From assembly GCA_963767505.1 (NCBI GenBank), contig CAVYDV010000004.1, forward strand, positions 1,623-65,622: DNA of 64,000 nucleotides. Direction: 5' to 3'. The notes beneath the pieces were generated by a model. It saw only the letters and a program-made list of their open reading frames with translations. It ran no database searches and was not told the origin of the DNA. Positions 15,210 through 53,754 of this stretch are shown here, in pieces. Both the position numbers and the translations under genes were made by a program. Source of the DNA: an uncultured Thermoleophilia bacterium. GTDB lineage: Bacteria; Actinomycetota; Thermoleophilia; UBA2241. How positions within the stretch are numbered: the stretch's first letter is position 1; every line of letters starts with the position of its first letter.

Positions 15210-15299
15210 GATGTCACCTTGTCGTGGACTTCGTCTCAAGCGAGACGGATTTCCACGTCCTTCTCACCTCTACTATGCCCATCAGGGCGCGTCGCCAAG

Positions 15300-15436
15300 C
15301 GCCTGCGGGGCGCCGAGAGCGAAGGGATGGCTGGGTCTCGCGAGACGACGGTGATCTCCTCTGACTGCCCGAGCTCGAGCTCGAAGGCCGCGTTGATGCC
15401 TGCGAAGCTGCCACCTAGAACGACGATGGACGTCAT
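15300..15436 (-). pseudogene. Duplicated 5' end of the SQR-like gene (first 35-45 codons only)
   Basis: MTSIVVLGGSFAGINAAFELELGQSEEITVVSRDP matches the N-terminus of the 30717-31919 product. About 70 bp of upstream leader is also duplicated (15437-15505 versus 31920-31995). Confidence 0.7.
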
Positions 15437-15770
15437 GGTCCACTCCTGCACAGACTGGTGCACCGTGCTCGTTCGCGGCTCGCTTCTTTCGCGGTCAGAT
15501 GCGCGACGAGAACGATGCACTCAGAGCAGCACGAGGGGCGCCTTGGTCTGTGCAGCGGCCGGGCGTACACTTCCCGTGGCCTGCTGCGCCGTCCACGCGT
15601 CTTCTGCGTCTGGGCAGCGGGGATGCGGTGGTCGAGCACATGCGACCTTGCTGGCGCAGTGGTCTGCTCGTGACGGCGTCGGCCTTGGGTGTCCGGGTTC
15701 CAGCCAAGGCGGACCCGCGACCCAGTGTCTCGAGGCGGCCCTGCCTTCGCGCGCTTGTAGAGAAACGGGG

Positions 15771-20500: not shown

Positions 20501-20513
20501 ACATAGGAGGTAG
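19604..20513 (+). pseudogene. IS3 OrfB (DDE/rve integrase), internal frameshift near 19945
   Basis: The frame of ORF 19604 reads ...RKNHVWA, then the homologous sequence continues in the frame of ORF 20004 (YDFVAEKTDDGRALKLLTVIDEHTRE...SDNGPEF...PWENGYIESFNG). This is in addition to the normal OrfA/OrfB frameshift. Confidence 0.7.
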
Positions 20514-20524
20514 AGAGCCCGCGT

Positions 20525-21283
20525 CTACTTGGCCATGTAGCCGCCATCAACGGTCAGGGTCTCACCGGTGACGAACGATGCCGCATCAGAGCACAGCCAG
20601 GCGACGGCTTGCCCGATCTCCTCGGGCTCGCCGATGCGTGCTACGGGCGTGTCCGCAGTCAGGGCGTCCTGCATCTCCGGATTGGCCGCGACTATCTGGT
20701 CGACCATCGGGGTCCTGATGACGCCCGGACACACTGAGTTCACGCGAATCCCCGCCTGTGCATACTCGAGAGCGACGGCCTTGGTGAGACCGTTCACACC
20801 GTGCTTGGAAGCCACATAGGGACTCAGGTTCCTGACGCCGGTGAGGCCCGCGATGGATGCCGTGTTCACGATCGCTCCCCCACCCCTGGCGAGCATCCGC
20901 GGGATCTCATACTTCATGCACAGGAAGACGCCCTTCAGGTTGACGGCGATGACCCGGTCGTAGTCCTTCTCCGAGTAGTCGGCTGCCGGCCCCATAGGGC
21001 CGTCGATGCCCGCGTTGTTGTGCGCACAGTCGAGCCCTCCGAAGGTCTCCACCGCGAAGTCGACGGCAGCCGCTACCTCACCTGCCTGCGAGACATCACA
21101 GGCGACGAAGGCGGCCTCTCCTCCTGCGCTCCTGATCGCCTCGACAGTCGCAGCACCGCCATCGGCGTCCACATCCGCAGCCACGACCTTCGCGCCCTCT
21201 CGCGCGAAGACCCCTGCCGTGGATCGGCCTATCCCGGAACTGGCGCCTGTGATCAGAGCGATCTTGTCTTCTAGAAGTCCCAT
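20525..21283 (-). CDS. SDR family oxidoreductase
   Basis: Motifs: TGASSGIG, NNAG, YVASKHG. A GGGAGGGG RBS precedes ATG 21283. Confidence 0.9.
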   Translation of the reverse strand: MGLLEDKIALITGASSGIGRSTAGVFAREGAKVVAADVDADGGAATVEAIRSAGGEAAFVACDVSQAGEVAAAVDFAVETFGGLDCAHNNAGIDGPMGPAADYSEKDYDRVIAVNLKGVFLCMKYEIPRMLARGGGAIVNTASIAGLTGVRNLSPYVASKHGVNGLTKAVALEYAQAGIRVNSVCPGVIRTPMVDQIVAANPEMQDALTADTPVARIGEPEEIGQAVAWLCSDAASFVTGETLTVDGGYMAK

Positions 21284-21495
21284 CTTCCCCTCCCTCGACT
21301 TGGCGACAGCGAGGCGGCGCATTGCCGCGACGCTTCCGCCTTCGGTCATCGTCGTTCCAGCGCTCGTCGACGCTCCAGTCCCGAAGACACATCGAGTGGA
21401 CCTGTCGCTGCCGGTGACGTGCCAGTCTCGTGATCGGAGACCACGCTGCCATGTCCTCGCGACGCTGCCCTCCCTTCGGTCTAGACCCCCTGATA

Positions 21496-21509
21496 TGGGC
21501 ATATGCCCA
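21496..21509. promoter_or_regulatory. Perfect 14-bp palindrome TGGGCATATGCCCA
   Basis: It is a symmetric variant of the TGAGCATATGCTCA motif, located in the non-coding region between the SDR gene and the peroxiredoxin. A related half-site, CATATGCCCA, lies at 21761-21770. Confidence 0.35.
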
Positions 21510-22107
21510 GCATATCACCTTCAGGAGCGGCTACAAGGTCAGGCGTCCAGAGCCTCTCGGTCACGCCTTTGCGACGCAGGCGATCCCAGCTCTCTCATAG
21601 CTCCGTGCAGCCGAAGTCGGATGCGCGGATGGTGAGTACCGTCTCACGCCGAAGCGGGTCGGTCCCTTACCGGCGGCGGCCTCCCGGACGCCTCAGCGCG
21701 AACGGCTGTGCGGACCCATTGCCGATGTGCGCCAGCTCAGCCAACAGCAGGAGTAGCTGCCATATGCCCATAGTTGCGCGTAGACCAACTGTGTTCTGAC
21801 CAAACGAGCTGTAGAGGCGTCGGCGCGGTCGGCGCGGAGGCGCTCATCTCCGTGGTGTGGATACGGGCCCGGCCACGGTATGGGCGTTGTCGCCGGGTGA
21901 CCCGTGAGCACCGCGAGGCCCGCGTGAGCGAAGCGAGTCAGGTGCGCAACGGTGGGCATCGGAGCGGCGCGAAGCGAAGGACGAGAAGGAGGGACGTGAG
22001 GGATGGACGACAGTGACGTCGGATGCGCTCGTCCAACGGGTTCCGTGGTCGGCGCGGAGCCGGCGAAGAAGGACGACGCACAAGCCACCGAACGGAAGGA
22101 GACCAGT

Positions 22108-22716
22108 GTGAGCAGCATCATGGTCGGCCGCAAGGCGCCGGACTTCGTCGCGCCCGCCTACCACAAGGGCGCCTTCACCCAGGTCAAGCTCTCCGACTAC
22201 CTGGGCAAGTGGGTCGTCCTGTGCTTCTACCCGGGCGATTTCACCTTCGTCTGACCGACCGAGATCTCGGCGGTCGCCGAGAAGTACGACGAGTTCCAGG
22301 CGCTGGGCGTCGAGGTGCTGTCGGCCAGCGTGGACTCGCAGTTCGTCCACAAGATGTGGGACGAGAACGAGCTCTCGAAGATGGTGGAGGGCGGCGTGCC
22401 GTTCCCGATGCTCGCCGACGCGGCGGGCCATCTGGGCACCGCCTACGGCGTCTACGACGACGAGGCCGGCGTAGACGTCCGTGGCCGCTTCATCATCGAC
22501 CCGGACGGCGTGATCCAGGCCATGGAGGTGCTCACGCCGCCCGTGGGCCGCAGGGTCGAGGAGTCGCTCCGGCAGATCCAGGCGTTCCAGCACGTGCGTA
22601 CCACGGGGGGCAAAGAGGTCACGCCCTCCGGCTGGGAGCCCGGCAAGAAGGTCCTCAAGCCCGGCCCCGACCTGGTGGGCCGCGTGTGGGAGGTCTGGCA
22701 GCCGGCGGATGCCTAG
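22108..22716 (+). CDS. prxU: Peroxiredoxin (AhpC/Prx1 type) with in-frame TGA at the peroxidatic-Cys codon; candidate selenoprotein
   Basis: An AAGGAG RBS lies 6 nt before GTG 22108. ORFs 22003-22254 and 22315-22716 share one frame. The junction reads [19 protein letters not shown], against the family motif FTFVCPTE. Confidence 0.7.
22253..22275 (+). promoter_or_regulatory. SECIS-like hairpin starting at the G of the UGA
   Basis: GACCG-A-CCGA [GAUC] UCGG-CGGUC forms 9 bp with one bulge and a 4-nt loop. Confidence 0.4.
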
Positions 22717-22919
22717 CCTGCGGCGCTGATCACCGCTTTCGGCAACGAGAAGCAGGGCTGCCCCGGGGCAAGCCCCGTTGCTCGTGGGAACGCATCATCA
22801 GGGGTCGCCGACTCGGCCGATGGTTCCCAGTCGCTGGCACTCCCCGACACTGATCCACGTGATCAACACGGTGCTTGGGCTCCTGCCGAAGGACCTGCCG
22901 ACGCCCTCGACGACGCCGT

Positions 22920-23198
22920 GACCGGGGGCTTCGACACCCCTGCGGTCCACCACCGAGTCGTGCTCTGCGCGCCCTTCGAACGGACCCCGACACGGCCCGG
23001 TGCGACCATTCTGCAGCCCAGATCCACGCGACTGGATAGGAGCGGGGGGGCGGAGGGGAGCGACTGGACCGCCCCACCAGCGCCGGAGACGATCGCCTGG
23101 CCGGGCTTTGCGCTCTCTGACTGCGGGCCTCCGAAAGCTATGACGGAGGCGGCTCTGGGACGAACATGCGAAGTGGACCGACGAATGGGGTCCGGTCA
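22920..23198 (+). repeat. Left arm of a 279-bp perfect inverted repeat (nested IS right-end remnants)
   Basis: It is the reverse complement of 32155-32433, and the encoded peptide strings are identical. It ends with the IS3-type terminus ...GTGGACCGACGAATGGGGTCCGGTCA. Confidence 0.85.
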
Positions 23199-23220
23199 CT
23201 CGGCGGCCGCGTCCCCTCAC

Positions 23221-23604
23221 TCAGTGCCGGCAGGCCCCCTCAAGCCCGACCACCGGCAGGTCTCCCCGCACGAAGGCTGTCGCAGCCGTCTGCACGTCCG
23301 GACCAGTCCCGGCGTGCACCGCGATGCCGACCTGGCCGAAGCCCATGAGCGGCCGGCCGCCGATGCCGTCGACGACGATGGCGTCGACCGTGTTCTCGGC
23401 CAGGAGAAGCACTGGCCGCATGCAGCCGCCCTCCTCATGTGGAGTGTTCTGCACGACCTCGACGCCGGCCACGTCGCCGTCGACGACCTCGACCACGGTG
23501 AAGCAGTCGCAGCGGCCGAAGTGCCCTGACCGTCGCGCCTCGAGACCGCCCGGAGCTTCCGAGGGGATTGCGATGCGCACCGTCGTTCCGTTGAGTTCAC
23601 TCAT
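23221..23604 (-). CDS. NifX/NifB-like (dinitrogenase FeMo-cofactor-binding domain) protein 1
   Basis: VRIAIPSE...SGHFGRCDCFTVVEV...DAIVVDGIGGRPLMGFGQVGIAV matches the family pattern. Confidence 0.8.
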   Translation of the reverse strand: MSELNGTTVRIAIPSEAPGGLEARRSGHFGRCDCFTVVEVVDGDVAGVEVVQNTPHEEGGCMRPVLLLAENTVDAIVVDGIGGRPLMGFGQVGIAVHAGTGPDVQTAATAFVRGDLPVVGLEGACRH

Positions 23605-23670
23605 GTGGATCAGACTCCGTTCCTGGTTGGTGGATCGATATCGTGGGGCCGACGGTCGCGGTGAAGGCCG

Positions 23671-24168
23671 TCAGGCGCTGGCGTGACCCGGACCGCGGCC
23701 GCGCTTCTGGCGACCGGCGCCGGCGCCCCGGCTTCCATGTCCCATCCCGCAGTGCCCTGCCGCATCCCAGCAGGTGCCCACCTCGGCAGAGCCGCAGGAT
23801 GGGCAGGCGGCCGGTGGCGGGTCATCTGGTGGGGCGCCCCAGAGGGAGCCGCAGGAGGCGCAGCAGAGCTGCCGCGGCTCGATACGGTACTGACCCCCAC
23901 CGATGAGGATCGCCTTGCCCGCTACGAGCGCCTCTGCGACCTTGGCTCTGCCCCGCTCGAGCACGCGGCCGACGGTCTGGCGCGAGATGCCCATGGCTTC
24001 GGCCGCCTGCTCGTGGCTCAGCCCGTCGAGGTCGACGAGGCGGATGGCCTCCAGCTCGTCGACCGTCAGCTGCAACTGCTCGAGCTCGCGGCCCGGCACG
24101 CCCGCCGGCTTGAACAGGGTCGCCCGCGGCACGCCGCCGACGGCGCGCTCAATCGGTGGGCGGGGCAT
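23671..24168 (-). CDS. DUF134 (UPF0251) putative DNA-binding protein with C-terminal Zn ribbon
   Basis: MPRPPIERAVGGVPRATLFKP...LTVDELEAIRLVDLDGLSHEQAAEAMGISRQTVGRVLERGRAKVA has a sigma-70 region-4-like HTH. The Zn ribbon is CASCG...CPSCG. An AGGAGA RBS is present. Confidence 0.85.
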   Translation of the reverse strand: MPRPPIERAVGGVPRATLFKPAGVPGRELEQLQLTVDELEAIRLVDLDGLSHEQAAEAMGISRQTVGRVLERGRAKVAEALVAGKAILIGGGQYRIEPRQLCCASCGSLWGAPPDDPPPAACPSCGSAEVGTCWDAAGHCGMGHGSRGAGAGRQKRGRGPGHASA

Positions 24169-24186
24169 GTCCGTCTCCTGTGGTTC

Positions 24187-24200
24187 CTAGCATATGCTCA
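24187..24200. promoter_or_regulatory. Operator-like site CTAGCATATGCTCA (12 of 14 match to TGAGCATATGCTCA)
   Basis: It lies about 20 nt upstream of the DUF134 start codon, between the RG-rich ORF and the DUF134 gene. Confidence 0.45.
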
Positions 24201-24224
24201 TCCTAGAGGGGGCGAGGTCCGGCT

Positions 24225-24650
24225 TCAACACGCCGGCTTCTCGCTGTCTACTGTGTGGTCGGCCGTGTCGTGCGACGCCGGGAGAGCCCGGGGTGCAGGC
24301 TGGGTCGCACCCACTTCGATCGTCCTTCTCTGCGCCGGCACCTCGCTTGGCGTCGGCGGATCCAGCCGCAGGTAGGCGCCGCCCAGGCGCCGGGCCGGTT
24401 CACGACGGCTCAGCGCCAGGCGCAGTGCGGTCCGGCGCAGCAGGGGCCGCGTCAGTCCCTCGGCATCGCGGATGTCCTGCACGACGTAGGCGCCGGCCGC
24501 GACCAGGGTCCGGGTCGCTGTGCGCCCGCCCAGGCCGCCCTCGCTGCTCCGGGCATTGCCCCAGCGACCGCTACGGCCTCGCCCGGTGCCCTTGCATGGT
24601 GGCCCTCCCCGTCGTTGTCGGCGGTACCCGGGCCTTCCGTCTGCGTGCAT
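24225..24650 (-). CDS. Hypothetical protein with Arg/Gly-rich N-terminus (141 aa)
   Basis: An AGGAGGAAGG RBS overlaps the end of the upstream gene. The N-terminus is MHADGRPGYRRQRRGGPPCKGTGRGRSGRWGN. No domain was recognised. Confidence 0.5.
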   Translation of the reverse strand: MHADGRPGYRRQRRGGPPCKGTGRGRSGRWGNARSSEGGLGGRTATRTLVAAGAYVVQDIRDAEGLTRPLLRRTALRLALSRREPARRLGGAYLRLDPPTPSEVPAQRRTIEVGATQPAPRALPASHDTADHTVDSEKPAC

Positions 24651-24667
24651 GGCTGCTTCCTTCCTCC

Positions 24668-25024
24668 TCATGTCCAGTGACCGCTGACGGTGGGTGCCTC
24701 GACCGCTTCGAGCTCGCCGCGCTCGAGAGCGGCCAGGGCGTCGTGCGCGGTCACTCCGTTGCTCGTCTGGTAGATGGCGATGTCCGCAGCGGCGAGCACC
24801 CGGTGCGCGTTCGGCCCGACATTGCCGGTGATGACCGCCCCGGCGCCGTGCGACGCCACGGCGTTGCCCGTCTGGATGCCGGCGCCGCCGCTGGCGACCG
24901 CGTTCTCGCGAGCCTGCCACTCGCCGGTCTCGGTGTCAGCGACGATGAACCAGCGGGCGCGGCCGAACCTGGGGTCGACCAGGGACCCGATATCGTTGCC
25001 CTGTGTACTGATGGCTACTCTCAT
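24668..25024 (-). CDS. NifX/NifB-like (FeMo-cofactor-binding domain) protein 2
   Basis: MRVAISTQGNDIGSLVDPRFGRARWFIVAD...AGAVITGNVGPNAHRVLAAADIAIY. The start overlaps the radical SAM stop (ATGA). Confidence 0.85.
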   Translation of the reverse strand: MRVAISTQGNDIGSLVDPRFGRARWFIVADTETGEWQARENAVASGGAGIQTGNAVASHGAGAVITGNVGPNAHRVLAAADIAIYQTSNGVTAHDALAALERGELEAVEAPTVSGHWT

Positions 25025-25986
25025 GGCTGCTCCTCTATTCGATGCTCGATGGCGGCGGGCGCCGCCAGGTAGAACGATTCGCCCTCGTGGGTGTGCAGCT
25101 CAACGACGCCTTGAGTCACCAAGGCAGTGGCCGCCTTGAGCGCCTCGCCGTGGTGAAGGCCCAAGCCAGCGGCGATGTCGGCTGTGGTGCACGGACGCCG
25201 CGAGAGCAGTGCCAGGATGTCGGCACTGTGGACGGCTCGGCTGCCAGCGGCGGGCAGGGTGTCGGCGATCACCTCGGCGTGCGGGGTGAAGAGACCGGCG
25301 AACTGCTGCAGAAGGCCCTCCGCGACTGGCGTCACGAACGACTCCGCCGGGGGGCGCACCGCCGTGTTCAGCTGGATCCGGTCGGGGGTGATGCGCGCTG
25401 CCAGCTCCGCGAGCCGCTGCACCTCGGACAGCAGCCCGGTGACGCCGGCGAGCAGCATGACCTCGAGCCAAAACTGCCCGGAGAAGTTCTGGCGGAAGGC
25501 GATCATGCCGTCGACCACCTCGTCGAAGCGCAGTGCTGCGTGAGGACGGTTGATGAGCTGGAACAGGCCGCCATCTGGGGCGTCGAGTGACGGCAACACG
25601 ATGTCGGCGGCCGCCAGTCCTCGGCGCACCGTCGGGTGGCTGAAGAGCGACCCGTTGGTGACCACCGCCACCGGCACGTCCGTGAGCCCCTTGATGCCGG
25701 CGATCACTTCGCCGATCCCCGCATGCAGGGTCGGTTCACCCGATCCGGCGAGAGCGATGGCGTCAGGCTCCGAATCGAGCTTGGCGCGCACCTGAGCGAC
25801 AACGTCTGGTGGGTCGACCCAACGCTGCCTGCGCACCGTCTTGCACGTAGTACGGCCGAGCTGGCAGTAGATGCAGTCGTAGGTGCACGTCTTGAGGGGC
25901 ACGAGGTCGACGCCGAGGGAGCGCCCCAGGCGACGGGAGGGCACCGGCCCGTAGACAAGCTGTTCTGTGCTGACGGCGAAGGGCAT
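25021..25986 (-). CDS. Radical SAM protein
   Basis: YGPVPSRRLGRSLGVDLVPLKTCTYDCIYCQLG carries the CxxxCxxC motif. GSGEPTL is also present. Confidence 0.85.
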   Translation of the reverse strand: MPFAVSTEQLVYGPVPSRRLGRSLGVDLVPLKTCTYDCIYCQLGRTTCKTVRRQRWVDPPDVVAQVRAKLDSEPDAIALAGSGEPTLHAGIGEVIAGIKGLTDVPVAVVTNGSLFSHPTVRRGLAAADIVLPSLDAPDGGLFQLINRPHAALRFDEVVDGMIAFRQNFSGQFWLEVMLLAGVTGLLSEVQRLAELAARITPDRIQLNTAVRPPAESFVTPVAEGLLQQFAGLFTPHAEVIADTLPAAGSRAVHSADILALLSRRPCTTADIAAGLGLHHGEALKAATALVTQGVVELHTHEGESFYLAAPAAIEHRIEEQP

Positions 25987-25989
25987 CCT

Positions 25990-26886
25990 CTACCCCGTCT
26001 GACTGTGAGCGGAGTGCTCGGTCGGTGTGAGCAGCGGCTCGATGGCGGCCGAGAACGCCGCGGTCGCCGGCGATCCAGAGAACGCCTGCACGAAAGGTAC
26101 GCCGCACTCTCCGGCCTGCACGACCGTCGGATCCATCGGGATGCGGCCGAGGAACGGCACCCCGGCAATTGTGGCCATGGTCTCTGCGCCGCCGCTCTGA
26201 AAGATGTCGGTGGTCTCGCCACAGTGTGGGCAGACGAAGCCGCTCATGTTCTCGATCACGCCCAGCACCGGGAGATCGCGCGTCCTGCAGAAGGCCAACG
26301 CCTTGCGCACGTCGCTGACCGCCACGCTCTGTGGGGTGGAGACGACTACGGCTCCCACTCCTGCGTCGAGCATCTCGACCAGCGCCAGTGCCTCGTCCCC
26401 AGTACCGGGAGGAGCGTCGACCACGAGGCAGTCGATGTGGCCCCAGTCGAGCCTGGCGAGCATGTCGCGGATCGCCGAGTACTTGCGCGGGCCGTGGCAC
26501 ATGACAACGGCGTCCTCCTCGGGCAGAAAGAACTGGATCGACATGGCCCACAGGATCTCGCTCGCCTTGGCTCGGGCAACGCCGCTGACGTGCCCCGGCC
26601 GAGGCGCATAGTCGATCCCCAGGAGACCCGGGACGCTGGGGCGGTAGAGGTCGACATCGAGCAGACCGACGCGCCTCCCGGCGTCCGCCAGCGCCGTGGC
26701 CAGGTTCAACGCCACGGTGCTCTTGCCCACTCCGTCCTTGCCCGACAGCAAGAGCAGCTTCTGGCGAACGCTCAGCAAGCGGAAATGTAGCTCGACCTGT
26801 CGTCGGCGGGGATCACCATCAACATGGGCGCGGCCCCCATCGTGCCCCTCGAGTCCTGCCTTGCGGGTCACGTGGCCTTCACGCAT
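25990..26886 (-). CDS. Mrp/NBP35 (ApbC-like) Fe-S cluster carrier ATPase
   Basis: Features: deviant Walker A SGKDGVGKST, VVDAPPGTGD, and GVIENMSGFVCPHCGE. The start is uncertain. Confidence 0.85.
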   Translation of the reverse strand: MREGHVTRKAGLEGHDGGRAHVDGDPRRRQVELHFRLLSVRQKLLLLSGKDGVGKSTVALNLATALADAGRRVGLLDVDLYRPSVPGLLGIDYAPRPGHVSGVARAKASEILWAMSIQFFLPEEDAVVMCHGPRKYSAIRDMLARLDWGHIDCLVVDAPPGTGDEALALVEMLDAGVGAVVVSTPQSVAVSDVRKALAFCRTRDLPVLGVIENMSGFVCPHCGETTDIFQSGGAETMATIAGVPFLGRIPMDPTVVQAGECGVPFVQAFSGSPATAAFSAAIEPLLTPTEHSAHSQTG

Positions 26887-27784
26887 TGAGCACCTCTCCT
26901 TGCGGGGACGGCGAGAGCGATGCGCCCACCGCTCCCCAGAGCTTCGTGATCTCCTCCGCGGCGCGCCCGCCGTGGGCGATGACGTCGGTGCCCGCTACTT
27001 GGGCATGTGTCACTGCGGGGTCGTACTCGACAGTGACGACGAACTCCGCTCCGGCGTCGGACGCCTCACCAGAGATGCGCGCGCCGAGCTCCCGGTTGAG
27101 ATCTGCCTTGTTGATGCAGACGGCGAACGGCAGCCGGAACTGCCGCACCACCTGCAGCACGCGGTCGAGGTCGTGGCGACCCGAGACCGTCGGTTCGGTG
27201 ACCACCAGCACCAGGTCGGCGCCGGCCAGCGAGGCGATCACGGGGCAGCCGATGCCCGGCGATCCGTCGACGATGACGAGCGGCAGTCCGCGCTCCTCGG
27301 CCACGCTGCGAGCCTCGTTGCGTACGAGGGTCACGAGCTTGCCGGAGTTGTCCTCGGCGACCCCGAGACGAGCGTGGACGAGCGGCCCGTAGCGCGTCTC
27401 GGATGTCATCCAGGCACCGTTGATGACGGGCTCCATGCGGATGGCGTCGGCGGGGCACACGTGCCGGCAGAGCTCGCAGCCCTCGCAGGCGAGGGCGTCG
27501 ATCGAGTAGTCGCCGTCGGCGCTCCGCACGGCCGCGAAGCGGCAGACCTCGGCGCAGCGGCCGCAGGCGGTGCAGGCCTCAGGGTCGATGATCGCCCTTC
27601 GGCGGCCGCTGAACTCATGTTCCTTCCCGAACTCGGGCCCCAGGACCAAGTGCAGGTCGGCGGCGTCGACGTCGCAGTCGGCGAGCACGGCGCCGCCCGC
27701 CAGCGCCGCGAAGGCGGCCACGATGCTCGTCTTCCCGGTGCCGCCCTTGCCGCTGATGACGACCAGCTCGCGCGGCGGGCTCAT
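26879..27784 (-). CDS. MinD/ParA-type P-loop ATPase with inserted 2x[4Fe-4S] ferredoxin domain (COG1149 type), copy B
   Basis: Features: SGKGGTGKTS, then CTACGRCAEVC and CEGCELCRHVCP inserts, then DGSPGIGCPV. Confidence 0.85.
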   Translation of the reverse strand: MSPPRELVVISGKGGTGKTSIVAAFAALAGGAVLADCDVDAADLHLVLGPEFGKEHEFSGRRRAIIDPEACTACGRCAEVCRFAAVRSADGDYSIDALACEGCELCRHVCPADAIRMEPVINGAWMTSETRYGPLVHARLGVAEDNSGKLVTLVRNEARSVAEERGLPLVIVDGSPGIGCPVIASLAGADLVLVVTEPTVSGRHDLDRVLQVVRQFRLPFAVCINKADLNRELGARISGEASDAGAEFVVTVEYDPAVTHAQVAGTDVIAHGGRAAEEITKLWGAVGASLSPSPQGEVLNA

Positions 27785-28665
27785 GAGGCCACCTCTGCCG
27801 CTCGGGCGGCTGATTCGATGCGCGTCCAGGCAGCGCTCAGCTTCTCTCCCAGACCCTCGACCGAGTCGAGTAGCAGATGGCCCTGGGCGTAGGTCTCGGC
27901 GATGCGTCGCTCGTAGGGCAGCTCGAGAACGATCTCGATGCCCTCGTCGGCGCAGTACGAGTACACTCGATCGTCTCCCAGACCGGCGCGGTTGACGACA
28001 ACGACGCAGCGCAGCCCGAGCGCGCGCACCATCTCTACCGCAAGCTCGAGGTCGTGCAGACCGAAAGGCGTCGGCTCGGTGACCAGGACTACCAGGTCAG
28101 AGTCGCGTACCGCTGCGATCACGGGGCAGGAGGTGCCCGGTGGCGCGTCGATCAGTACGACGTCGACGCTGTCGTCGTCGGCAGCTGCCAAGGTGGCCCT
28201 GGTCGTGGGTACGGCCTTGGCTTCGCCGACTGCGAGCACCCCGCTCACGAGCGGGAAGACAGGCTGGCGCGGGGGAGTCGCCATGCCGTGCTCGACCACC
28301 CCGGTCTCACGCTCTTCCTCATGGATCGCGTTCTGCGGACACAGCAGCGCGCACGCTCCACAGGAGTGGCAGAGCTCCGGGAACACGAGGACCGTGGAGC
28401 CGACGACGGCGATGGCGTTGAAAGCGCAGACCTCGCCGCACGCCCCGCAGCCGTTGCAGCGCGCCTCGTCCACCTCGGGCACCAGGACGCGCACTGGCTC
28501 GCGGTGTTCGATCTCGGGATGCAGGAAGAGGTGACAATCCGGCTCCTCGACATCGGCGTCGAGGAGCTGCACGGCCAAGCCGCGCGCGGAAAGCAGCGCC
28601 GCGAGGTTGGTGGCGAGCATCGTCTTCCCGGTGCCGCCCTTGCCGCTGGCGATGGCGATGCGCAT
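27781..28665 (-). CDS. MinD/ParA-type P-loop ATPase with inserted 2x[4Fe-4S] ferredoxin domain (COG1149 type), copy A
   Basis: Features: SGKGGTGKTM, CNGCGACGEVC, CHSCGACALLCP, DAPPGTSCPV. There is a 4-nt overlap with the next gene. Confidence 0.85.
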   Translation of the reverse strand: MRIAIASGKGGTGKTMLATNLAALLSARGLAVQLLDADVEEPDCHLFLHPEIEHREPVRVLVPEVDEARCNGCGACGEVCAFNAIAVVGSTVLVFPELCHSCGACALLCPQNAIHEEERETGVVEHGMATPPRQPVFPLVSGVLAVGEAKAVPTTRATLAAADDDSVDVVLIDAPPGTSCPVIAAVRDSDLVVLVTEPTPFGLHDLELAVEMVRALGLRCVVVVNRAGLGDDRVYSYCADEGIEIVLELPYERRIAETYAQGHLLLDSVEGLGEKLSAAWTRIESAARAAEVAS

Positions 28666-28669
28666 GGCC

Positions 28670-29059
28670 TCAGACCTCCAGCTCGAGCACGCCGTTGGGG
28701 CAGGCGCTCAGGCAGGCACCGCAACCGTTGCACAGCGTGGCGTCCACCACCACCTCCGCCGCGAGCAGGCTCAGCGCGCCACGAGGGCAGGCGTCGAGGC
28801 AGGCTCCGCACAGGGTGCACTGATCCGCATGAGCCACGACGGCTATGGGTCGCGCTCGTGCAACTGGAGCCGGAGCCCCGGAGGGCACGTCCGCGCGTGG
28901 GGCCGGCACGGCGACAGCGGCAGCCATCTGCGCTGCGAGGCCGGTCCCGCCGCAGGCCTCAGGAGCCGCGCCGCGCCCCGAACCGTCACGGCGGCGCTGC
29001 CGGACGCCGTGTCTCTGGCCGCGACCGGTGCCCCGACCTCTGTCTCTGGCGCGCCTCAC
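28670..29059 (-). CDS. 2x[4Fe-4S] ferredoxin with possible Arg/Gly-rich N-terminal extension
   Basis: CTLCGACLDACP and CNGCGACLSACP motifs are present. GTG 29059 overlaps the upstream stop (GTGA) and would add RRARDRGRGTGRGQRHG... to the N-terminus. The alternative start is ATG 28927. Confidence 0.75.
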   Translation of the reverse strand: MRRARDRGRGTGRGQRHGVRQRRRDGSGRGAAPEACGGTGLAAQMAAAVAVPAPRADVPSGAPAPVARARPIAVVAHADQCTLCGACLDACPRGALSLLAAEVVVDATLCNGCGACLSACPNGVLELEV

Positions 29060-29376
29060 TTCTGCCCCGCCTCGAGCCGGTCGAGGCGCTCAACGATCTC
29101 CCCCAGCCTGCTCTCCAAGCTCGCGAACGGGTCCGGCCAAGCGCATGCCAGCGCCGACGAGTCGGCCTGCTCGGCACGCTGCCAGCCGGTGAGTCCGGTG
29201 GCGTAGAACTGGTTGCGGCGACCGCGGCCGCCGCCGCCCCGGCCACGACCCATTCCGGCGCCCCTCCCAGCGTTTGCTCCGAAGCCGACATCTGCCGTGG
29301 CACCGGCACACGAGCCGCGCCGGCCACCTGTCATAGGGCCGTAGCCCATCGGTCCTGAACCGTCCATTCCTGGCAT
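29056..29376 (-). CDS. DUF5320 family protein
   Basis: MPGMDGSGPMGYGPMTGGRRGSCAG...GRGRGGGGRGRRNQFYATGLTGW... is followed by a C-terminal coiled coil (LESRLGEIVERLDRLE). An AAAGGAGAG RBS is present. The ORF-track start at 29433 lies inside the operator palindrome. Confidence 0.8.
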   Translation of the reverse strand: MPGMDGSGPMGYGPMTGGRRGSCAGATADVGFGANAGRGAGMGRGRGGGGRGRRNQFYATGLTGWQRAEQADSSALACAWPDPFASLESRLGEIVERLDRLEAGQK

Positions 29377-29426
29377 GATCTCTCCTTTGTCGCCGTCCGG
29401 CGCTCGGCTTGCCGGAGCGTGTGTAA

Positions 29427-29447
29427 TGAGCATATGCTCATATTATA
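29427..29447 (-). promoter_or_regulatory. Perfect palindrome TGAGCATATGCTCA (16 bp as ATGAGCATATGCTCAT) abutting a TATAAT -10 box
   Basis: The palindrome is at 29427-29440. On the minus strand, TATAAT (29442-29447) lies immediately upstream of it, about 50 nt before the DUF5320 start. Confidence 0.55.
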
Positions 29448-29978
29448 CCCGTGACCTGAGATAGCAAGCGCCTCCCACTGGACGAGAATCAGCGAATCAC
29501 GGAGGGTTCTTGCTGAGAGCCGATCCGAGGATGGGACCGACTACGACGACGGACAGGGCTAGGAGGCCACGGGTGATGTTGGCGCCGACGACTGAGTCGA
29601 CTACGTGAAGGCCCGGACGATTGATGTCACGCTCGCAGCCTCAGGCGCAACGGCGACCAGCGCCGAGCGTTTCACAGGCTCACGACCTCTGCTGCGCTTC
29701 AGCGGGGTCGAATCGATGAGCAGTAGGCCGCCGCGCGAGCCCGGGCTCTGCCGAGCGAAGCGGCCCAGGAGCCACTCGACGGTGTCCGCCAGACGCCGGC
29801 GACGCCTGTGGAGCCGGCTTGGCCCGGGAGTTGCGGGAATGGGTGTCAGAGCCGCTGATGCGCGGCGCCAGGAACCCGCGGTACCACTACAAGCTGCTTC
29901 CAGCGGCACCAAGCGTGGACGACGGGGCCACCGGCCTGCGCGCTCGTCCGCGGTCACGGACCTGAGGCGCTCGCTCGT

Positions 29979-30497
29979 CTACCGCGCCTCTGGCCGTCGC
30001 TCGCCGCGTTGCAGGAACGTCTCGCTGCTCACCAGGTCCGTCCATCCGCCACGTGTGCCGACTCGAAGATCGAAGGCCTCGACGTAGGGCTTGATGTCGA
30101 GCAGCGGCGTGCCGTCGAGCACATCGAGGTCCTCGACAAGCAGATCGGCACCGCGGCGTTCGACCAGACGCACGATGCTGAGGCCGAGCGGGTTGGGGCG
30201 CACCGGCGTGCGCGTGGCGAAGATGCCCCTGGGCGCGTCGTCAAGAAACGGCACCACCCTGAGCGGCGACGGACCGGCGACGGACTTCACGATGTCGGCG
30301 GCACGGTGGAGCCAGTAGATGAGGTGCAGATGCGAGAAGCCCTCCACGTCGTCCAGCCCCTCGGCGAACTCGGAGAAGACCTCAACCCGGCCTTGGCTGC
30401 CCTCGGCGCAGACCGGCTGGATGGGTGTCTGCCCTGGTTCGCGATGCTCGCTGTGAATGATGCCGATCGGCTCCAGCGTGAGCCTCTCCACGTCCAC
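29979..30497 (-). CDS. trmO: TsaA/YaeB-like tRNA methyltransferase (TrmO family)
   Basis: LEPIGIIHS...FSHLHLIYWLH...RGIFATRTPVRPNPLGLSIVRL...LDGTPLLDIKPY matches the family. The start may be the second GTG, at 30491. Confidence 0.8.
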   Translation of the reverse strand: MDVERLTLEPIGIIHSEHREPGQTPIQPVCAEGSQGRVEVFSEFAEGLDDVEGFSHLHLIYWLHRAADIVKSVAGPSPLRVVPFLDDAPRGIFATRTPVRPNPLGLSIVRLVERRGADLLVEDLDVLDGTPLLDIKPYVEAFDLRVGTRGGWTDLVSSETFLQRGERRPEAR

Positions 30498-30716
30498 CTC
30501 CGATGTCGTGCAGGGACAGGTCGCACTGCGGCGGGGTCGCGGTGAACCGCCTGCGCGGCCAGCCGCGCGTTGTCCTGGGTCCGCGCCGTCTCCTCACTGG
30601 CGGGGCACTTGACCCCGCCAAGCCAGCGCAGTGGTCGTGTTTCTGGTCGCACGGGGGTCTGAGGTGGTGTCCTTTCCCTTCGACGCACGGGCGACCACAG
30701 GGACCACTCCGCACCC

Positions 30717-31919
30717 TCAGGGCAGGTACACCAGCCCGTGCTTGATCCTCAGCATGTAGTACTTCTCGAAGGCGAGCTTGGCCCAGTGCGACCAGGGACC
30801 GGGGATCATGATCTCGTAGCGGCGTGGCTTGAAGACGCGATCGAGCACGATGATCATGCCCTGGTTGCCGGCGTCCATGATGCACAGCGGCTTGATGTCG
30901 GCGAAAGGCATCGGGCGCGGTTCACTGCCTTGGATCGCCGCCACGATGTTGTGTGCCGCGACCTTGCCCATGACCTCCGACATCCAACCTGTCTTGGGCA
31001 CCCCGGTGGGCACCTCCGTCGGTATCTGCGGCTTGATCTGGACGGCGATACCGGCGGCGTAGATGTTGTCGAAGTCGCGGTGCTTGTAGCAGTCGTCGGT
31101 GGGGATGAAGCCCTTCTCGTCCCCCAGGCCGGGCGAGTCGAAGATGGCCTGGACGCCGGTGAACGGAGGGATGACGATGGCGTACTTGTGGTTCAGCACG
31201 CGTCCGTCGGAGAGCGTGATGGAGCCCTTGCTGGCCGAGGTCATGCCGACATTGGCGAAGGGCTTGATGCCGAGCATCCTGAAATAGGCCTTGAGCATCG
31301 GCTCCCCGCCGCGCATGCCGCCGAGACCGAAGTGGCCGAGGAACGGCTCCGAGGTCACGAAGGCCAGCGGCGCCTGCTTGCGGATCTTCGCCTCACGCAG
31401 TGCCTTGTCGATGTTGAAGACCACCTCGTAGGCTGCGCCGAAGCAGCTGGCGCCCTGGGCCGAGCCGATGACGACCGGCCCCGGGTCTTGGACGAACTCA
31501 AGCCAGGCTTCGGCGGAGTCCATCGCGTGTTTGAGGCTGCAGACGGAGTGCGAGGTGCCCTCCTCGGGGCCGAGGCCCGGGACGACGGAGAAGTTGTACT
31601 TGGCCCCCGTCCCAATCAGCAGGTAGTCGTAGGGGACCTCACCCTTGTCGGTGAACACCTTGTTCTGCTCGGCGTCGATATACTCGACGGTCGCATGCTT
31701 GAACTTGATGCCCCGCCGGTAGAGGATCGGCTCGAGCTCCATGCTGACCTGCCCGGGCTTGCGCCACCCGGGGACCATCCAGATCAGCGAGGGCACGAAG
31801 ATGAAGCGGGGGTCTCGCGCGACGACGGTGATCTCCGCAGCACTCCCCAGCTCGAGCTCGAGCTCGAAGGCCGCGTTGATGCCGGCGAAGCTGCCACCCA
31901 GAACGACGATGGACGTCAT
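30717..31919 (-). CDS. sqr: Sulfide:quinone oxidoreductase-like FAD-dependent oxidoreductase
   Basis: The FAD fold begins MTSIVVLGGSFAGINAA. SQR-type Cys contexts GASCFGAAYE and PLCIMDAGNQG are present. The product is 400 aa. Confidence 0.75.
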   Translation of the reverse strand: MTSIVVLGGSFAGINAAFELELELGSAAEITVVARDPRFIFVPSLIWMVPGWRKPGQVSMELEPILYRRGIKFKHATVEYIDAEQNKVFTDKGEVPYDYLLIGTGAKYNFSVVPGLGPEEGTSHSVCSLKHAMDSAEAWLEFVQDPGPVVIGSAQGASCFGAAYEVVFNIDKALREAKIRKQAPLAFVTSEPFLGHFGLGGMRGGEPMLKAYFRMLGIKPFANVGMTSASKGSITLSDGRVLNHKYAIVIPPFTGVQAIFDSPGLGDEKGFIPTDDCYKHRDFDNIYAAGIAVQIKPQIPTEVPTGVPKTGWMSEVMGKVAAHNIVAAIQGSEPRPMPFADIKPLCIMDAGNQGMIIVLDRVFKPRRYEIMIPGPWSHWAKLAFEKYYMLRIKHGLVYLP

Positions 31920-32078
31920 GGGTCCACTCCTCCACAGACTAGTGCGCCGAGGTCAGTCGTGGCTCGCCTCTTCCGCGGTCAGACGCCCGACGCCAGCCAT
32001 GCATCCAGATCAACCAGCCCAGCGCCCTGGAGCCTTTGCGGCCGTGCCAGTTCTCACCTATGGGAAGATGTAGCATAC

Positions 32079-32092
32079 TGAGCATATGCTCA
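32079..32092. promoter_or_regulatory. Perfect palindrome TGAGCATATGCTCA upstream of the SQR-like gene
   Basis: It lies 160 nt upstream of the start at 31919. An extra half-site, TAGCATAC, is directly adjacent (32071-32078). Confidence 0.5.
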
Positions 32093-32126
32093 CGATACCA
32101 CACCTGCCCCGTACGTCCCGAACGGC

Positions 32127-33706
32127 TCACACGCGAGAAGAAGCCGGACCCCACTGACCGGACCCCATTCGTCGGTCCACTTCGCATGTTCGTCCCAGAG
32201 CCGCCTCCGTCATAGCTTTCGGAGGCCCGCAGTCAGAGAGCGCAAAGCCCGGCCAGGCGATCGTCTCCGGCGCTGGTGGGGCGGTCCAGTCGCTCCCCTC
32301 CGCCCCCCCGCTCCTATCCAGTCGCGTGGATCTGGGCTGCAGAATGGTCGCACCGGGCCGTGTCGGGGTCCGTTCGAAGGGCGCGCAGAGCACGACTCGG
32401 TGGTGGACCGCAGGGGTGTCGAAGCCCCCGGTCGGGTGTGGCTCCAAGCAGTGCACAGCGAGCGGCCGACGCTGTTCGAAGGTCTGATGCGGCCTAATCT
32501 CGCTGTAGAGCGAGAGGTAGGCTGCGACCTCCTCGGCGAGGTCGGCGGCGGTCTCGATCTCGCGCTGGTAGAGGTGCTCGTACTCGAGCGAGCGGTTGAA
32601 GCGCTCGACCACGCCGTTGGTCTCGGGAGCGTAGTGGCGGGTGATGTGGCGATAGTCGAAGCCCTCGAGGCTGATGCGCCCGCCCTCACGCACCCGCCGC
32701 GTGACCACCTCACCCTCGGCGGGGTGCTGCTCGCCGCTGGCCTTGGCCTCGACCGCTTCGGCTTCAGGCTGCCGTGCCACCGGCTGCTGCCCTCTCGCCG
32801 CCAGCTCGAAGCGCTTGATCGGGGCCACCATGCCGATGCCCTGATGGGGCCGCTCGCAGTTGTAGTGGGCCACCCAGGCGTCGAGCTCGGCTTGGGCGGC
32901 CTCTAGCGAGGCGAAGGTACGACCTTCGAGGAACTCACTCCGCAGCGTCTTGTGGAAGCGCTCGACCTTGCCGGTCGTGGTCGGGCTGTAGGGGGCGGTG
33001 AGCAGATGACGGACGCCGTGCTCTTGGCAGATGCGGTCGAAGAGCACCTCGCGGCGGTGGGCCCCGAAGCGCCCCGTGAAGACCTTGCCGTTGTCGGTGA
33101 GGATCTGCTCGGGGACGCCGTGACGTTGCATGGCTGCACGCAGCGCCTCGCAGACCGGTCGCGTGGTGGCGCGCTCGACGAGCTGGGCCGAGACGCAGAA
33201 GCGCGAGTGGTCGTCGATGCCGGAGACGAGCTTGAGCTCGGATTCGTCTGAGAGCTTGACGCCGCCCATCACGTCCATCTGCCAGAGCTCCATGGCCTTG
33301 AGGCGCTCCCAGCGGCGGTAGTCCTCGCGCTTGCGACGGCGCTTCTGGGGATCGATGAGGCGATGGCGCACCAGGCAGCGATAGATCGAGGAGCGCGAGG
33401 GTTGGCGCTCGAGCTCCTCCCGCGCCAGGTAGTGGGCGATCGTGCGCGGCCCCCAGCGCGGGTGGGCGAGGCGCATCTCGACGATGCGCGCCTCGACCGC
33501 CGGCGGCATGCGGTGCGGGCAGCGCCCGGTCGCGAAGAGGCGTCGGCCAGACCGGCGATGCCGCTACGCGCGTAGCGTCGCAGCCAGCGGTGCAGCGTCT
33601 GGCGGGTGACCCCGTAGCGGCCGGCCACCGCGACCACGCTGTTGCCCGCGAGGACCTCGAGGACTGCCTTGTGGCGCTGTTCCACGACTCCCAGCTCGAT
33701 GAGCAT
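32127..33706 (-). pseudogene. IS481-family transposase, frameshifted and chimeric
   Basis: The N-terminal HTH (MLIELGVVEQRHKAVLEVL...TRQTLHRWLRRY, ORF 33269-33706) is in a different frame from the catalytic part (MPPAVEARIVEMRLAHPRWGPRTI...DNGKVF...TTGKVERFH, ORF 32127-33509). Confidence 0.7.
32155..32433 (-). repeat. Right arm of the 279-bp perfect inverted repeat
   Basis: It is the reverse complement of 22920-23198. Confidence 0.85.
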
Positions 33707-53500: not shown

Positions 53501-53754
53501 CCCTCGACCTCTCCGACGACGAGATCTCAGCCGGTGAGACCGTCACCTACTCGGGCAGCGTGAAGAGCGCCGGCGGCGCCAACGGCACCGGTACGGTCAC
53601 CCTGCAGAAGCGCCTCGCCGGCACCACGAGCTGGAGCAACTGGCGCACCAAGACGCTCTCCTCGGGCAAATACGCCGTGAACGTCGCCATGACGACCGCC
53701 GACCGCGAGTGGGAGTTCCGCGCCAGGATGCTGGCCGATGCCAGTCCAACCTGA
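50532..53754 (+). CDS. Secreted S8 (subtilisin-like) serine protease with five C-terminal Ig-like repeats; repeat region has several frame breaks
   Basis: A signal peptide is present. The catalytic triad contexts are VGIVDVGF (Asp), GGSHGTAVAEIV (His) and GGTSASSPHLAGAAAL (Ser). The reading frame must be followed through ORFs 50532-52916, 52852-53211, 53162-53563 and 53473-53754. Confidence 0.85.
52244..53754 (+). repeat. Tandem array of 5 units of about 309-313 bp, arranged as alternating variants A-B-A-B-A
   Basis: Unit starts (CCCTGGGTCGTCACCCTCGACCTCTCCGAC) are at about 52245, 52554, 52867, 53177 and 53488. Confidence 0.9.

Follow-up and report, generated by a model that had tools for sequence, protein, structure and literature searches.

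A conserved palindrome as the putative operator of the DUF134 (UPF0251) regulator family

The gene module and its surroundings

The DNA analyzed, here called the window, is a stretch of 64,000 nucleotides from an uncultured Thermoleophilia bacterium (assembly GCA_963767505.1, contig CAVYDV010000004.1, positions 1,623 to 65,622). The genes of interest are all on the minus strand. The DUF134/UPF0251 gene (23671-24168) codes for a 165 amino acid protein with a sigma-70 region-4-like HTH followed by a Cys-rich tail (CxxC...CPxC...C) that looks like a zinc ribbon; it matches PF02001 with E=1.1e-24 and 87 bits against a cut-off of 27, and has invariant cysteines at C103, C106, C122, C125 and C133. 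In the AlphaFold2 model the HTH core has a pLDDT of 85-96, but the model is only moderate overall (pLDDT 65.6) and says nothing about dimerization. The best Foldseek matches are ECF sigma region 4 and the DeoR DNA-binding domain. The gene is followed by a NifX-like (Nitro_FeMo-Co) gene (23221-23604; PF02579, E=4e-16), which is probably co-transcribed with DUF134. A NifX-like gene is adjacent to DUF134 in 45 of 46 Thermoleophilia loci, and it is fused to DUF134 in four of the loci collected for comparison (numbered with the prefix L), namely L037, L040, L045 and L046.

Upstream lies an operon (24225-29376) resembling the orange-protein (ORP) cluster of Desulfovibrio. It contains, in order, DUF5320 (29056-29376), a 2x[4Fe-4S] ferredoxin (28670-29059), two MinD-type ATPases with ferredoxin inserts (27781-28665 and 26879-27784), Mrp/NBP35 (25990-26886), a radical SAM protein (25021-25986), a NifX-like protein (24668-25024) and a conserved unannotated gene, ORFx (24225-24650). 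The assignments rest on Pfam and on an NCBIfam MrpORP-like match at 291 bits, and the gene order is conserved in Thermoleophilia, Planctomycetota and Methanocellales loci. ORFx fills what had been taken for a non-coding gap of 470 nt upstream of DUF134. The radical SAM protein has a weak MarR-like C-terminus (MarR_2, E=2.5e-4, below the cut-off), and DUF134 is therefore the only credible, but not the only conceivable, DNA binder in the module; the original prediction had named it as the only candidate.

Further upstream are an SQR-like flavoprotein gene (30717-31919) and a TrmO/TsaA-like gene (29979-30497), which together span 29979-31919. The former carries a Pyr_redox_2 domain but only a weak type III SQR match (102 bits against a cut-off of 525), while TrmO TIGR00104 scores 120.8 against a cut-off of 93. 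TrmO-like genes recur in the module across phyla. On the other side lies an SDR gene (20525-21283; NCBIfam NF004818, 350 bits). The module is bracketed by a 299-nt inverted repeat, which is context only and not part of the regulatory system. Its left arm (22920-23218, plus strand) is the 3' end of an IS3-family orfB remnant, as shown by rve domains, and is 97% complementary to the right arm (32135-32433, minus strand), which ends 42 nt upstream of the palindrome preceding the SQR-like gene. A third partial copy is found at 20376-20500.

The palindromes and the inferred promoters

The original prediction described three copies of a palindrome at promoter-proximal positions, and this observation was confirmed. 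Perfect copies of TGAGCATATGCTCA are found at 29427-29440 and 32079-32092, and a copy with 12 of 14 matches, CTAGCATATGCTCA, at 24187-24200. The distances given to the genes were also right: the first site is 51 nt from the Pfam-supported DUF5320 start (ATG 29376, RBS GGAGAG), the second 160 nt from the SQR-like start at 31919, and the third 18 nt from the DUF134 start at 24168. A fourth site, TGGGCATATGCCCA at 21496-21509, which is itself a palindrome, had been missed. Allowing 2 mismatches or fewer, 0.11 sites are expected per window by chance against the 4 found, and 0 of 100 shuffled sequences reached 4. With a position weight matrix (PWM) the four sites score 23-35 bits, whereas the best score in 50 shuffles was 14.2. 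A repeat search reported no repeat family across the sites, in agreement with the claim that their flanks are unrelated.

On the gene strand each site starts inside a TAnnnT hexamer, and for three of the four a TTGnnn hexamer lies 16-17 nt further upstream. The site at DUF134 (24186-24201) reads ATGAGCATATGCTAGG on the gene strand, has an imperfect right arm and scores 22.9 bits. The promoter inferred here is of the sigma-70 type and extends over 24200-24228, with a -35 TTGAAG (24223-24228), a 17-nt spacer and a -10 TAGGAT (24200-24205), the last 2 nt of which are the first 2 nt of the operator. The site at the DUF5320 operon (29426-29441) is the perfect 16-bp palindrome ATGAGCATATGCTCAT and is the strongest in the window (34.9 bits). 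The minus-strand TATAAT reported at 29442-29447 is present, but it would leave a spacer of only 14 nt; the likely -10 is TAATAT (29440-29445), 16 nt from TTGCTA (29462-29467), giving an inferred promoter at 29440-29467. It should be noted that both promoters match the consensus in only 8 of 12 positions, and a simple consensus scan of 21000-32500 found no promoter.

The site upstream of the SQR-like gene (32078-32093; GTGAGCATATGCTCAG on the gene strand, 28.4 bits) is preceded by a -10-like TATCGT (32092-32097) but has no convincing -35. The extra half-site TAGCATAC reported beside it was confirmed at 32071-32078. The paralogous promoter in L002 keeps the identical 14-mer although the flanks no longer align. 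SQR-like genes follow the motif in L002 and L124, lie inside the operator-headed operon in L067, and follow the DUF134-NifX fusion gene in L045. The fourth site, CTGGGCATATGCCCAT (21495-21510, 25.4 bits), has a -10-like TATGCT (21509-21514), a 16-nt spacer and a -35-like TTGTAG (21531-21536), and lies about 210 nt upstream of the SDR gene. It was not seen upstream of an SDR gene in other loci, so membership of the SDR gene in the regulon rests on this window alone.

Conservation of the palindrome and its linkage to DUF134

Two independent comparative tests were carried out, one starting from the gene and the other from the motif. In the first, 42 of 47 Thermoleophilia loci carry the exact core GCATATGC about 20-30 nt upstream of DUF134; three more carry variants with one mismatch there, and one has its site upstream of a longer DUF134-NifX fusion ORF. 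The arrangement of -35, spacer length, -10 and operator is conserved in three promoter classes, while the flanks diverge. These are DUF134 (42 distinct loci, operator consensus TGaGCATATGCTAAtAAC), the DUF5320 operon (24 loci, operator consensus TAATATGGGCATATGCTCATaAC, promoter consensus TTGCAt-16-TAATAT) and a nitroreductase gene (9 loci). In the DUF134 class position pair 3/14 is a G/A mismatch in 41 of 41 loci.

Outside Thermoleophilia, 11 of 33 distant loci from other phyla carry the exact core, and palindromes centred on GCATATGC precede DUF134 in at least ten other bacterial phyla. The site accompanies DUF134 in Calditrichota, Fibrobacterota, Gemmatimonadota, Ignavibacteria, Acidobacteriota, Lentisphaerota, Kiritimatiellota, Lysobacterales and Deltaproteobacteria, and in Planctomycetota it heads a single operon that ends in DUF134. 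Lineage-specific variants occur in further bacteria and in archaea, where DUF134 genes carry ATGAATATATATTCAT between a TATA-like box and the start codon. Two promoter geometries were found in bacteria, with the operator either after the -10 or within the spacer between -35 and -10; both overlap the core promoter.

In the second test a scan of metagenomes with the 18-mer alone returned 80 loci, with GC contents of 28-70%. Of these, 56 encode DUF134, and in 50 the gene starts 8-69 nt from the site and points away from it. Several long loci contain no other module gene; L084, L092, L142 and L157 have DUF134 but no other gene of the module. It had been stated beforehand that a motif frequent irrespective of gene context would speak against the interpretation, and this was not found in the roughly 0.8 Mb of related DNA examined.

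The putative recognition helix appears to vary together with the site. Arg (S-R-x-T) goes with G at position -4 of the half-site, with one exception, one half-site of L050 having A there, and Gln (S-Q-P-T) goes with A in five archaeal loci. This co-variation rests on few independent lineages, and an initial version of it involving the third helix residue was refuted.

A model for DUF134 control and its relation to known systems

The original prediction interpreted the palindrome as the binding site of a dimeric regulator, with DUF134 as binder and autoregulator, and the comparative data support this reading. We consider it likely that the palindrome, with the core GCATATGC and the full form (T)ATGrGCATATGCyCAT(A), is the operator of the DUF134 protein. 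The model proposes that a DUF134 dimer places its two sigma-region-4-like HTH units on the two half-sites. Each site overlaps the -10 hexamer by 2 nt and covers the expected transcription start, so bound protein would block RNA polymerase. The protein would thereby repress its own DUF134-NifX transcript through a conserved weaker, asymmetric site, the ORP-like operon of metal-sulfur-cofactor genes from DUF5320 to ORFx, and in this genome also the SQR-like/TrmO-like genes and the SDR gene, although these last two sites sit 160-210 nt from their start codons. Release would probably be triggered by a redox or metal-sulfur-cluster signal sensed by the Cys-rich tail, the adjacent NifX-like protein or both, but the signal is conjecture. 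What the analysis demonstrates is the existence of the sites, their conservation, their fixed position relative to conserved promoter hexamers and their two-way linkage to DUF134 across phyla; binding by DUF134, the dimer stoichiometry, repression rather than activation, the transcription start positions and the nature of the signal are inferred from sequence. We found no description of this operator in the searchable literature.

It is possible, although unlikely, that the operator is genuine but bound by another factor which merely co-occurs with the module, such as a global redox or Fe-S regulator or the MarR-like C-terminus of the radical SAM protein, and that DUF134 does something else. 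One metagenome site (L087) does sit beside an ArsR-type gene. However, DUF134 is the only gene constantly next to the motif, in 50 of 80 motif-selected loci, also in loci with no other module gene, the radical SAM gene is absent from many motif-bearing loci (for example L001), and the variant operators in archaea and Desulfobacterales track DUF134 lineages. About equally unlikely is that DUF134 binds the site as an activator or dual regulator, for example as a sigma-4-like recruiter of RNA polymerase. The fold, which is that of a domain normally contacting promoter DNA within the holoenzyme, the weak hexamers and the lack of a -35 at the SQR site would fit this hypothesis, but positions downstream of or overlapping the -10, inside the spacer, or between TATA box and start in archaea are known from bacterial and archaeal promoters to occlude polymerase rather than recruit it.

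A role at the RNA level, as a hairpin in the 5'-UTR affecting stability, attenuation or translation, is very unlikely. The element is an inverted repeat close to start codons, and G-T combinations at pair 4/13 in the DUF5320 class would be G-U pairs in RNA. On the other hand there is no Rfam match anywhere in the window, and the sequence is conserved without compensatory change. The DUF134 class keeps its G/A mismatch at pair 3/14, and A/C mismatches also occur. The inferred transcription start falls inside the palindrome, in archaea the site lies between a TATA-like box and the start codon, and in many bacteria it lies in the promoter spacer and would not be transcribed. The region is rich in IS remnants and the core contains the NdeI site CATATG, but the view that the sites are chance matches, a dispersed repeat, a mobile-element end or restriction-modification targets is effectively refuted by the excess over expectation, by the absence of a repeat family covering the sites, and by the finding that all strong sites are intergenic, promoter-positioned and conserved over phyla with widely differing GC content.

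The closest known systems are the orp operons of Desulfovibrio vulgaris, which are regulated by sigma-54, the [4Fe-4S]-PAS enhancer-binding protein OrpR (DVU2106) and IHF (PMC6345978, PMC8359166, PMC3897727, PMC4641369). The gene content is homologous and includes two MinD-type ATPases with 2x[4Fe-4S] motifs (Orp3/Orp4-like), single-domain Nitro_FeMo-Co proteins (Orp8-like) and an Mrp/NBP35 Fe-S carrier whose best NCBIfam hit is MrpORP; the cluster is specific to anaerobes and is under dedicated local transcriptional control. At the present locus there is no sigma-54 promoter and no enhancer-binding protein. The promoters look sigma-70-type with a palindromic operator, the candidate regulator is a small DUF134 HTH protein, and regulation is inferred to be repression rather than activation. 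The Mrp lacks the fused NifX-like domain and its 291 bits are below the 450-bit cut-off. The orp7 product (DVU2107), which reportedly is not part of the purified complex, may itself be a DUF134 protein.

A second comparison is with small autoregulated HTH repressors whose palindromic operators overlap the core promoter, and structurally with the DNA-binding domain of B. subtilis DeoR (SorC family) on its operator (PDB 7bhy) and ECF sigma region 4 on -35 DNA (PDB 2h27). The predicted three-helix sigma-4-like HTH superimposes with an rmsd of 0.5-1.0 A over about 45-50 residues, the target is palindromic, the regulator's own gene carries a site, and the site overlaps the promoter. Sequence similarity is marginal (E about 0.04), and DUF134 has its own conserved N-terminal arm and a Cys4-type tail; we could find no solved structure or published binding site for any member of the family. 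The Fe-S, redox or sulfide-responsive repressors of Fe-S assembly or sulfide detoxification genes (IscR, SufR, RsrR; CstR, BigR, SqrR) belong to other protein families (Rrf2, ArsR, CsoR-like), their known operators differ, and no Rrf2, CsoR or ArsR gene lies in the module. The logic would be similar, with a local repressor controlling cofactor-assembly, redox-detoxification or SQR genes and with cysteines available as a sensor.

The palindromic sites and their inferred promoter context

The sites of the original prediction are all present, and the observation thus holds. Perfect TGAGCATATGCTCA lies at 29427-29440 and 32079-32092, and CTAGCATATGCTCA lies at 24187-24200. A fourth site, TGGGCATATGCCCA at 21496-21509, had not been reported; it has two mismatches but is itself a palindrome. 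At 2 mismatches or fewer 0.11 matches are expected per window, and 0 of 100 shuffles reached 4. A position weight matrix built from sites in related genomes scores the four sites 22.9-34.9 bits, whereas the best score in 50 shuffles was 14.2. A fifth weak hit at 21754-21773 (13.2 bits) lies within the shuffle range and was not counted. No repeat family spans the sites.

All genes of the module are on the minus strand. They are a NifX-like (Nitro_FeMo-Co) gene at 23221-23604, DUF134 at 23671-24168, a second NifX-like gene at 24668-25024, a radical SAM gene at 25021-25986, Mrp/NBP35 at 25990-26886, two MinD-type ATPases with ferredoxin inserts at 26879-27784 and 27781-28665, a ferredoxin at 28670-29059, DUF5320 with its true start at 29376 and the RBS GGAGAG, a TrmO-like gene at 29979-30497, an SQR-like flavoprotein at 30717-31919 and an SDR gene at 20525-21283. 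The apparent 470-nt gap upstream of DUF134 is a conserved unannotated gene, here called ORFx (24225-24650, minus strand, 141 aa), which lies between the NifX-like gene and the inferred DUF134 promoter and has no Pfam or NCBIfam hit. Its core motif RTATRALVAVGAYVAQDLRDAEGLTRPLLRRAALRLALS...AYLRLDPP is found in about 35 Thermoleophilia loci, and its stop codon TGA lies inside the -35 TTGAAG of the inferred DUF134 promoter. The 540-nt stretch between the inferred DUF5320 promoter and the TrmO-like gene (29441-29978) has no Pfam-recognisable gene; an ORF at 29601-29957 contains an LLLIDSTPL string reminiscent of DDE transposases.

The whole module is bracketed by 299-nt inverted repeats (22920-23218 and 32135-32433), 97% complementary, which are 3' ends of IS3-family orfB remnants; a third partial copy at 20376-20500 and the stretches 19302-20513 and 32127-33706 also belong to this layout. 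The right copy is interrupted by an IS481-type transposase gene, and the layout looks like a decayed composite transposon or an IS-mediated rearrangement. Elsewhere in the window a short ORF at 15236-15520 (minus strand) is 76% identical at the protein level to part of the SQR-like protein and is probably a fragment or pseudogene copy. A tandem array of a 310-nt unit (52243-53744; 4.8 copies with 89% matches) apparently lies inside a large ORF that would contain a repeated domain of about 103 aa. The peroxiredoxin (AhpC/TSA) gene at 22120-22716 (plus strand) has a single in-frame TGA at 22252-22254, exactly at the peroxidatic cysteine codon (FTFV-TGA-PTE). Both halves are in the same frame and match the Pfam profile, which makes it a candidate selenocysteine peroxiredoxin; however, the 10-bp hairpin which starts at the TGA, considered as a possible SECIS element, folds no better than shuffles (z=-1.36).

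On the gene strand every site begins inside a TAnnnT hexamer: TAGGAT/GAGCATATGCTAGG for DUF134, TAATAT/GAGCATATGCTCAT for DUF5320, TATCGT/GAGCATATGCTCAG for the SQR-like gene and TATGCT/GGGCATATGCCCAT for the SDR gene. A TTGnnn hexamer lies 16-17 nt upstream in three of the four (TTGAAG, TTGCTA and TTGTAG), while the SQR site has none. It should be noted that these hexamers match consensus only 8/12, and that a consensus sigma-70 promoter scan of 21000-32500 reported no promoter; the assignment of inferred promoters therefore rests on conservation and not on consensus strength. The TATAAT noted in the original prediction was rejected as the -10, because the spacer to the conserved -35 would be only 14 nt.

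Association between the palindrome and the DUF134 gene

A DUF134 alignment was used to retrieve 80 genome loci, of which 47 are Thermoleophilia/Actinomycetota MAGs. In 42 of the 47 the exact GCATATGC core sits about 20-30 nt before the DUF134 start, three more carry one-mismatch variants there, and one has its site upstream of a longer DUF134-NifX fusion ORF. Aligning on the core gives three promoter classes: DUF134 (42 distinct sequences) with TTGAag-17-TAt.aT-GaGCATATGCTAAtAAC, the DUF5320 operon (24) with TTGCAt-16-TAATAT-GGGCATATGCTCATaAC, and a nitroreductase gene (9) with TTGCct-16-TATTAT-GAGCATATGCtTGTAAC. Flanks outside these elements carry almost no information. Single sites also precede peroxiredoxin, PNPOx-like, TrmO-like, SQR-like and hexapeptide-transferase genes.

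Two of these loci, L001 and L002, come from the same MAG (CAVQVW01), and the source lineage carries two paralogous modules. L001 is 99% identical in DUF134. Over 23200-31949 the window is 94% identical to L001, which lacks the radical SAM and Mrp genes, and it is 90.6% identical to L002 over the full operon, an alignment which breaks exactly at the end of the palindrome (29440). The stretch 29441-29978 is absent from L002. The window's SQR gene matches L002 and its TrmO region matches L001, so the window looks like a mosaic. The window and L002 no longer align around the SQR promoter, yet both keep the identical 14-mer.

At least ten other phyla also carry the site. Exact GCATATGC with ATGr...yCAT arms lies directly upstream of DUF134 in Calditrichota, Fibrobacterota, an FCB-group bacterium, Gemmatimonadota, Ignavibacteria, Lysobacterales, Acidobacteriota, Kiritimatiellota and Lentisphaerota. 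A deltaproteobacterium has ATGAACATATGCTCAT and Desulfobacterales have GAGTATATACTCA. In Planctomycetota the site heads one long operon, DUF5320-NifX-MinD-MinD-Mrp-NifX-DUF134. In Methanocellales and Methanosarcinales ATGAATATATATTCAT lies 2-5 nt before the DUF134 start and about 10 nt after a TATA-like box, and it heads DUF134-Mrp-DUF5320-NifX-NifX-MinD-MinD-rSAM-TrmO.

The association was also tested in the reverse direction. A metagenome scan with TATGRGCATATGCYCATA alone returned at least 120 stretches, of which 80 loci, ranging from 28 to 70% GC, were listed and analysed. A profile HMM built for the purpose finds DUF134 in 56 of the 80, and in 50 of them the gene starts 8-69 nt from the motif and points away from it. 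About ten more loci have DUF5320, MinD-ferredoxin or NifX genes. The rest include an ArsR-type gene, MoaE and, in three AT-rich contigs (L110:313-1191, L145:378-1271 and L160:571-1464), an ARMT1-like (DUF89) damage-control phosphatase gene preceded by the same operator, which suggests further regulon members outside the ORP module. Long metagenome loci such as L084, L092, L142 and L157 have DUF134 but no other module gene, and DUF134 is therefore the one constant partner of the motif. Two geometries relative to the inferred promoter hexamers appear in these loci: in one the operator follows the -10, as in this window, in the other it lies inside the -35/-10 spacer with the right arm CATAAT serving as the -10. 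Both would overlap the core promoter as it is inferred from these conserved but weak hexamers.

The DUF134 protein and its NifX-like neighbour

The protein matches DUF134/UPF0251 (PF02001) at 87.3 bits against a cut-off of 27 (E=1.1e-24, profile positions 6-97 of 98), and Sigma70_r4_2 at 37 bits; it has a sigma-70 region-4-like helix-turn-helix core. The AlphaFold2 model is moderate overall (pLDDT 65.6), but the predicted three-helix core at residues 36-82 (helices 36-47, 52-59 and 63-82) is confident, with pLDDT 85-96, and a predicted beta-ribbon at 99-133 carries the invariant CxxC...CPxC. A Foldseek search with the model matched only the HTH core, with ECF sigma region 4 as top matches and also the DeoR/SorC DNA-binding domain, and a PDB sequence search found no solved relative.

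The recognition-helix Arg (S-R-x-T) accompanies G at half-site position -4 in over 100 loci, with the one exception that one half-site of locus L050 has A there, while Gln (S-Q-P-T) accompanies A there in five archaeal loci. We give this modest weight, because few independent lineages are involved. Our first co-variation idea, that the third recognition-helix residue, Gln, tracks the GC core, failed, as the DUF134 proteins of the motif-selected metagenome loci carry SRQT, SRAT, SRPT and SRST with the same core; only the Arg/Gln position survives.

A NifX-like gene adjoins DUF134 in 45 of 46 Thermoleophilia loci, and in four loci the two are fused into a single polypeptide (L037:6129-7061, L040:9875-10924, L045:10001-10744 and L046:9995-10735), each still preceded by the operator. 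This suggests a functional partnership.

Interpretation and comparison with the Desulfovibrio ORP system

The inference that a dimeric regulator, the DUF134 protein, recognises the palindrome and controls its own gene is supported by the comparative tests in both directions. The sites, their conservation upstream of the regulator gene and the reverse linkage from motif to DUF134 are observed, whereas specific binding of the protein, de-repression on its removal and the positions of the transcription starts are inferred from sequence alone. In this view binding would be centred on CATATG and would be lost if the GCATATGC core were changed to GCTTAAGC.

Other readings of the palindrome find little support. 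An RNA element would require a match to a known family or base-pair covariation, but there is no Rfam hit in the window, no compensatory change is seen, and the DUF134 class keeps a fixed G/A mismatch at pair 3/14 in 41 of 41 loci; moreover, in many lineages the site lies in what is inferred to be untranscribed promoter DNA. A conserved 5'-UTR hairpin in the DUF5320 leader seemed visible by eye (for example TCCGGC...GCCGGA), but RNAalifold on 18 orthologous leaders predicted no consensus structure. Chance matches, a dispersed repeat, a MITE or an IS terminus are excluded by the shuffles, by the lack of any repeat family across the sites and by the comparative data, all strong sites being at inferred promoter positions. 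As to another regulator, no other gene tracks the motif.

A wider hypothesis, which we consider possible but doubtful, is that DUF134/UPF0251 is an ancient master repressor, spanning Bacteria and Archaea, of the anaerobe-specific ORP-type metal-sulfur-cluster module. It would use essentially one operator, ATGrGCATATGCyCAT, across at least ten bacterial phyla and a G-to-A variant in archaea (GCATATGC against ATATATAT cores) matched by the Arg-to-Gln change in the recognition helix. It would read the metal-sulfide or redox state of the cell through its adjacent NifX-like partner, fused to it in some lineages, which would act as a cluster-loaded co-repressor or anti-repressor.

DUF134/UPF0251 is a widespread regulator-like family of anaerobic bacteria and archaea for which we found no published function, structure or DNA target. 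Literature searches on the family (DUF134, PF02001, COG1342), on DUF5320 and on the motif gave nothing relevant, and those on UPF0251 only a secondary mutation in a Rex study; as far as the literature searched shows, the operator-regulator pair is undescribed. Assigning a precise, though still predicted, operator turns a domain of unknown function into a tractable transcription factor, provides a way to predict its regulon in any genome by motif scanning, and links the family to the ORP/NifX-like/Mrp module, whose physiological role is unclear even in Desulfovibrio. The putative regulon members seen here, which include peroxiredoxin, nitroreductase, an SQR-like flavoprotein, a PNPOx-like protein and an ARMT1-like phosphatase, point to a redox or metal-sulfur stress programme. 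A small autoregulated repressor with a palindromic operator is in itself entirely conventional, and the gain is de-orphanisation and breadth, not a new mechanism.

The best NCBIfam hit of the Mrp protein is MrpORP, which identifies the module as a homolog of the Desulfovibrio orange-protein (ORP) cluster (PMC6345978). As in the definition of that cluster (PMC6345978), there are two MinD-type ATPases with 2x[4Fe-4S] ferredoxin motifs (Orp3/Orp4), here CbiA/ParA plus Fer4 domains in 26879-27784 and 27781-28665, together with single-domain Nitro_FeMo-Co proteins (Orp8), here PF02579 in 23221-23604 and 24668-25024. The two-domain MrpORP, Mrp/NBP35 fused to a Nitro_FeMo-Co domain, is not found: NF041136 scores 291 bits against a cut-off of 450, the match covers only profile positions 3-257 of 365, and the NifX-like part is encoded by separate genes. 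Nor is there evidence of sigma-54 control, as no TGGCAC-N5-TTGC match lies at the module promoters and there is no enrichment (26 found, 22.8 expected), no conserved -24 element is present in the 24 DUF5320-operon promoters, and no enhancer-binding-protein gene lies in the module. The Desulfovibrio orp7/DVU2107 may possibly be a DUF134 protein. In D. vulgaris the orp operons are activated at low redox potential by sigma-54, OrpR and IHF (PMC8359166, PMC3897727, PMC4641369), whereas the homologous module described here has inferred sigma-70-type promoters and a palindromic operator tied to DUF134.
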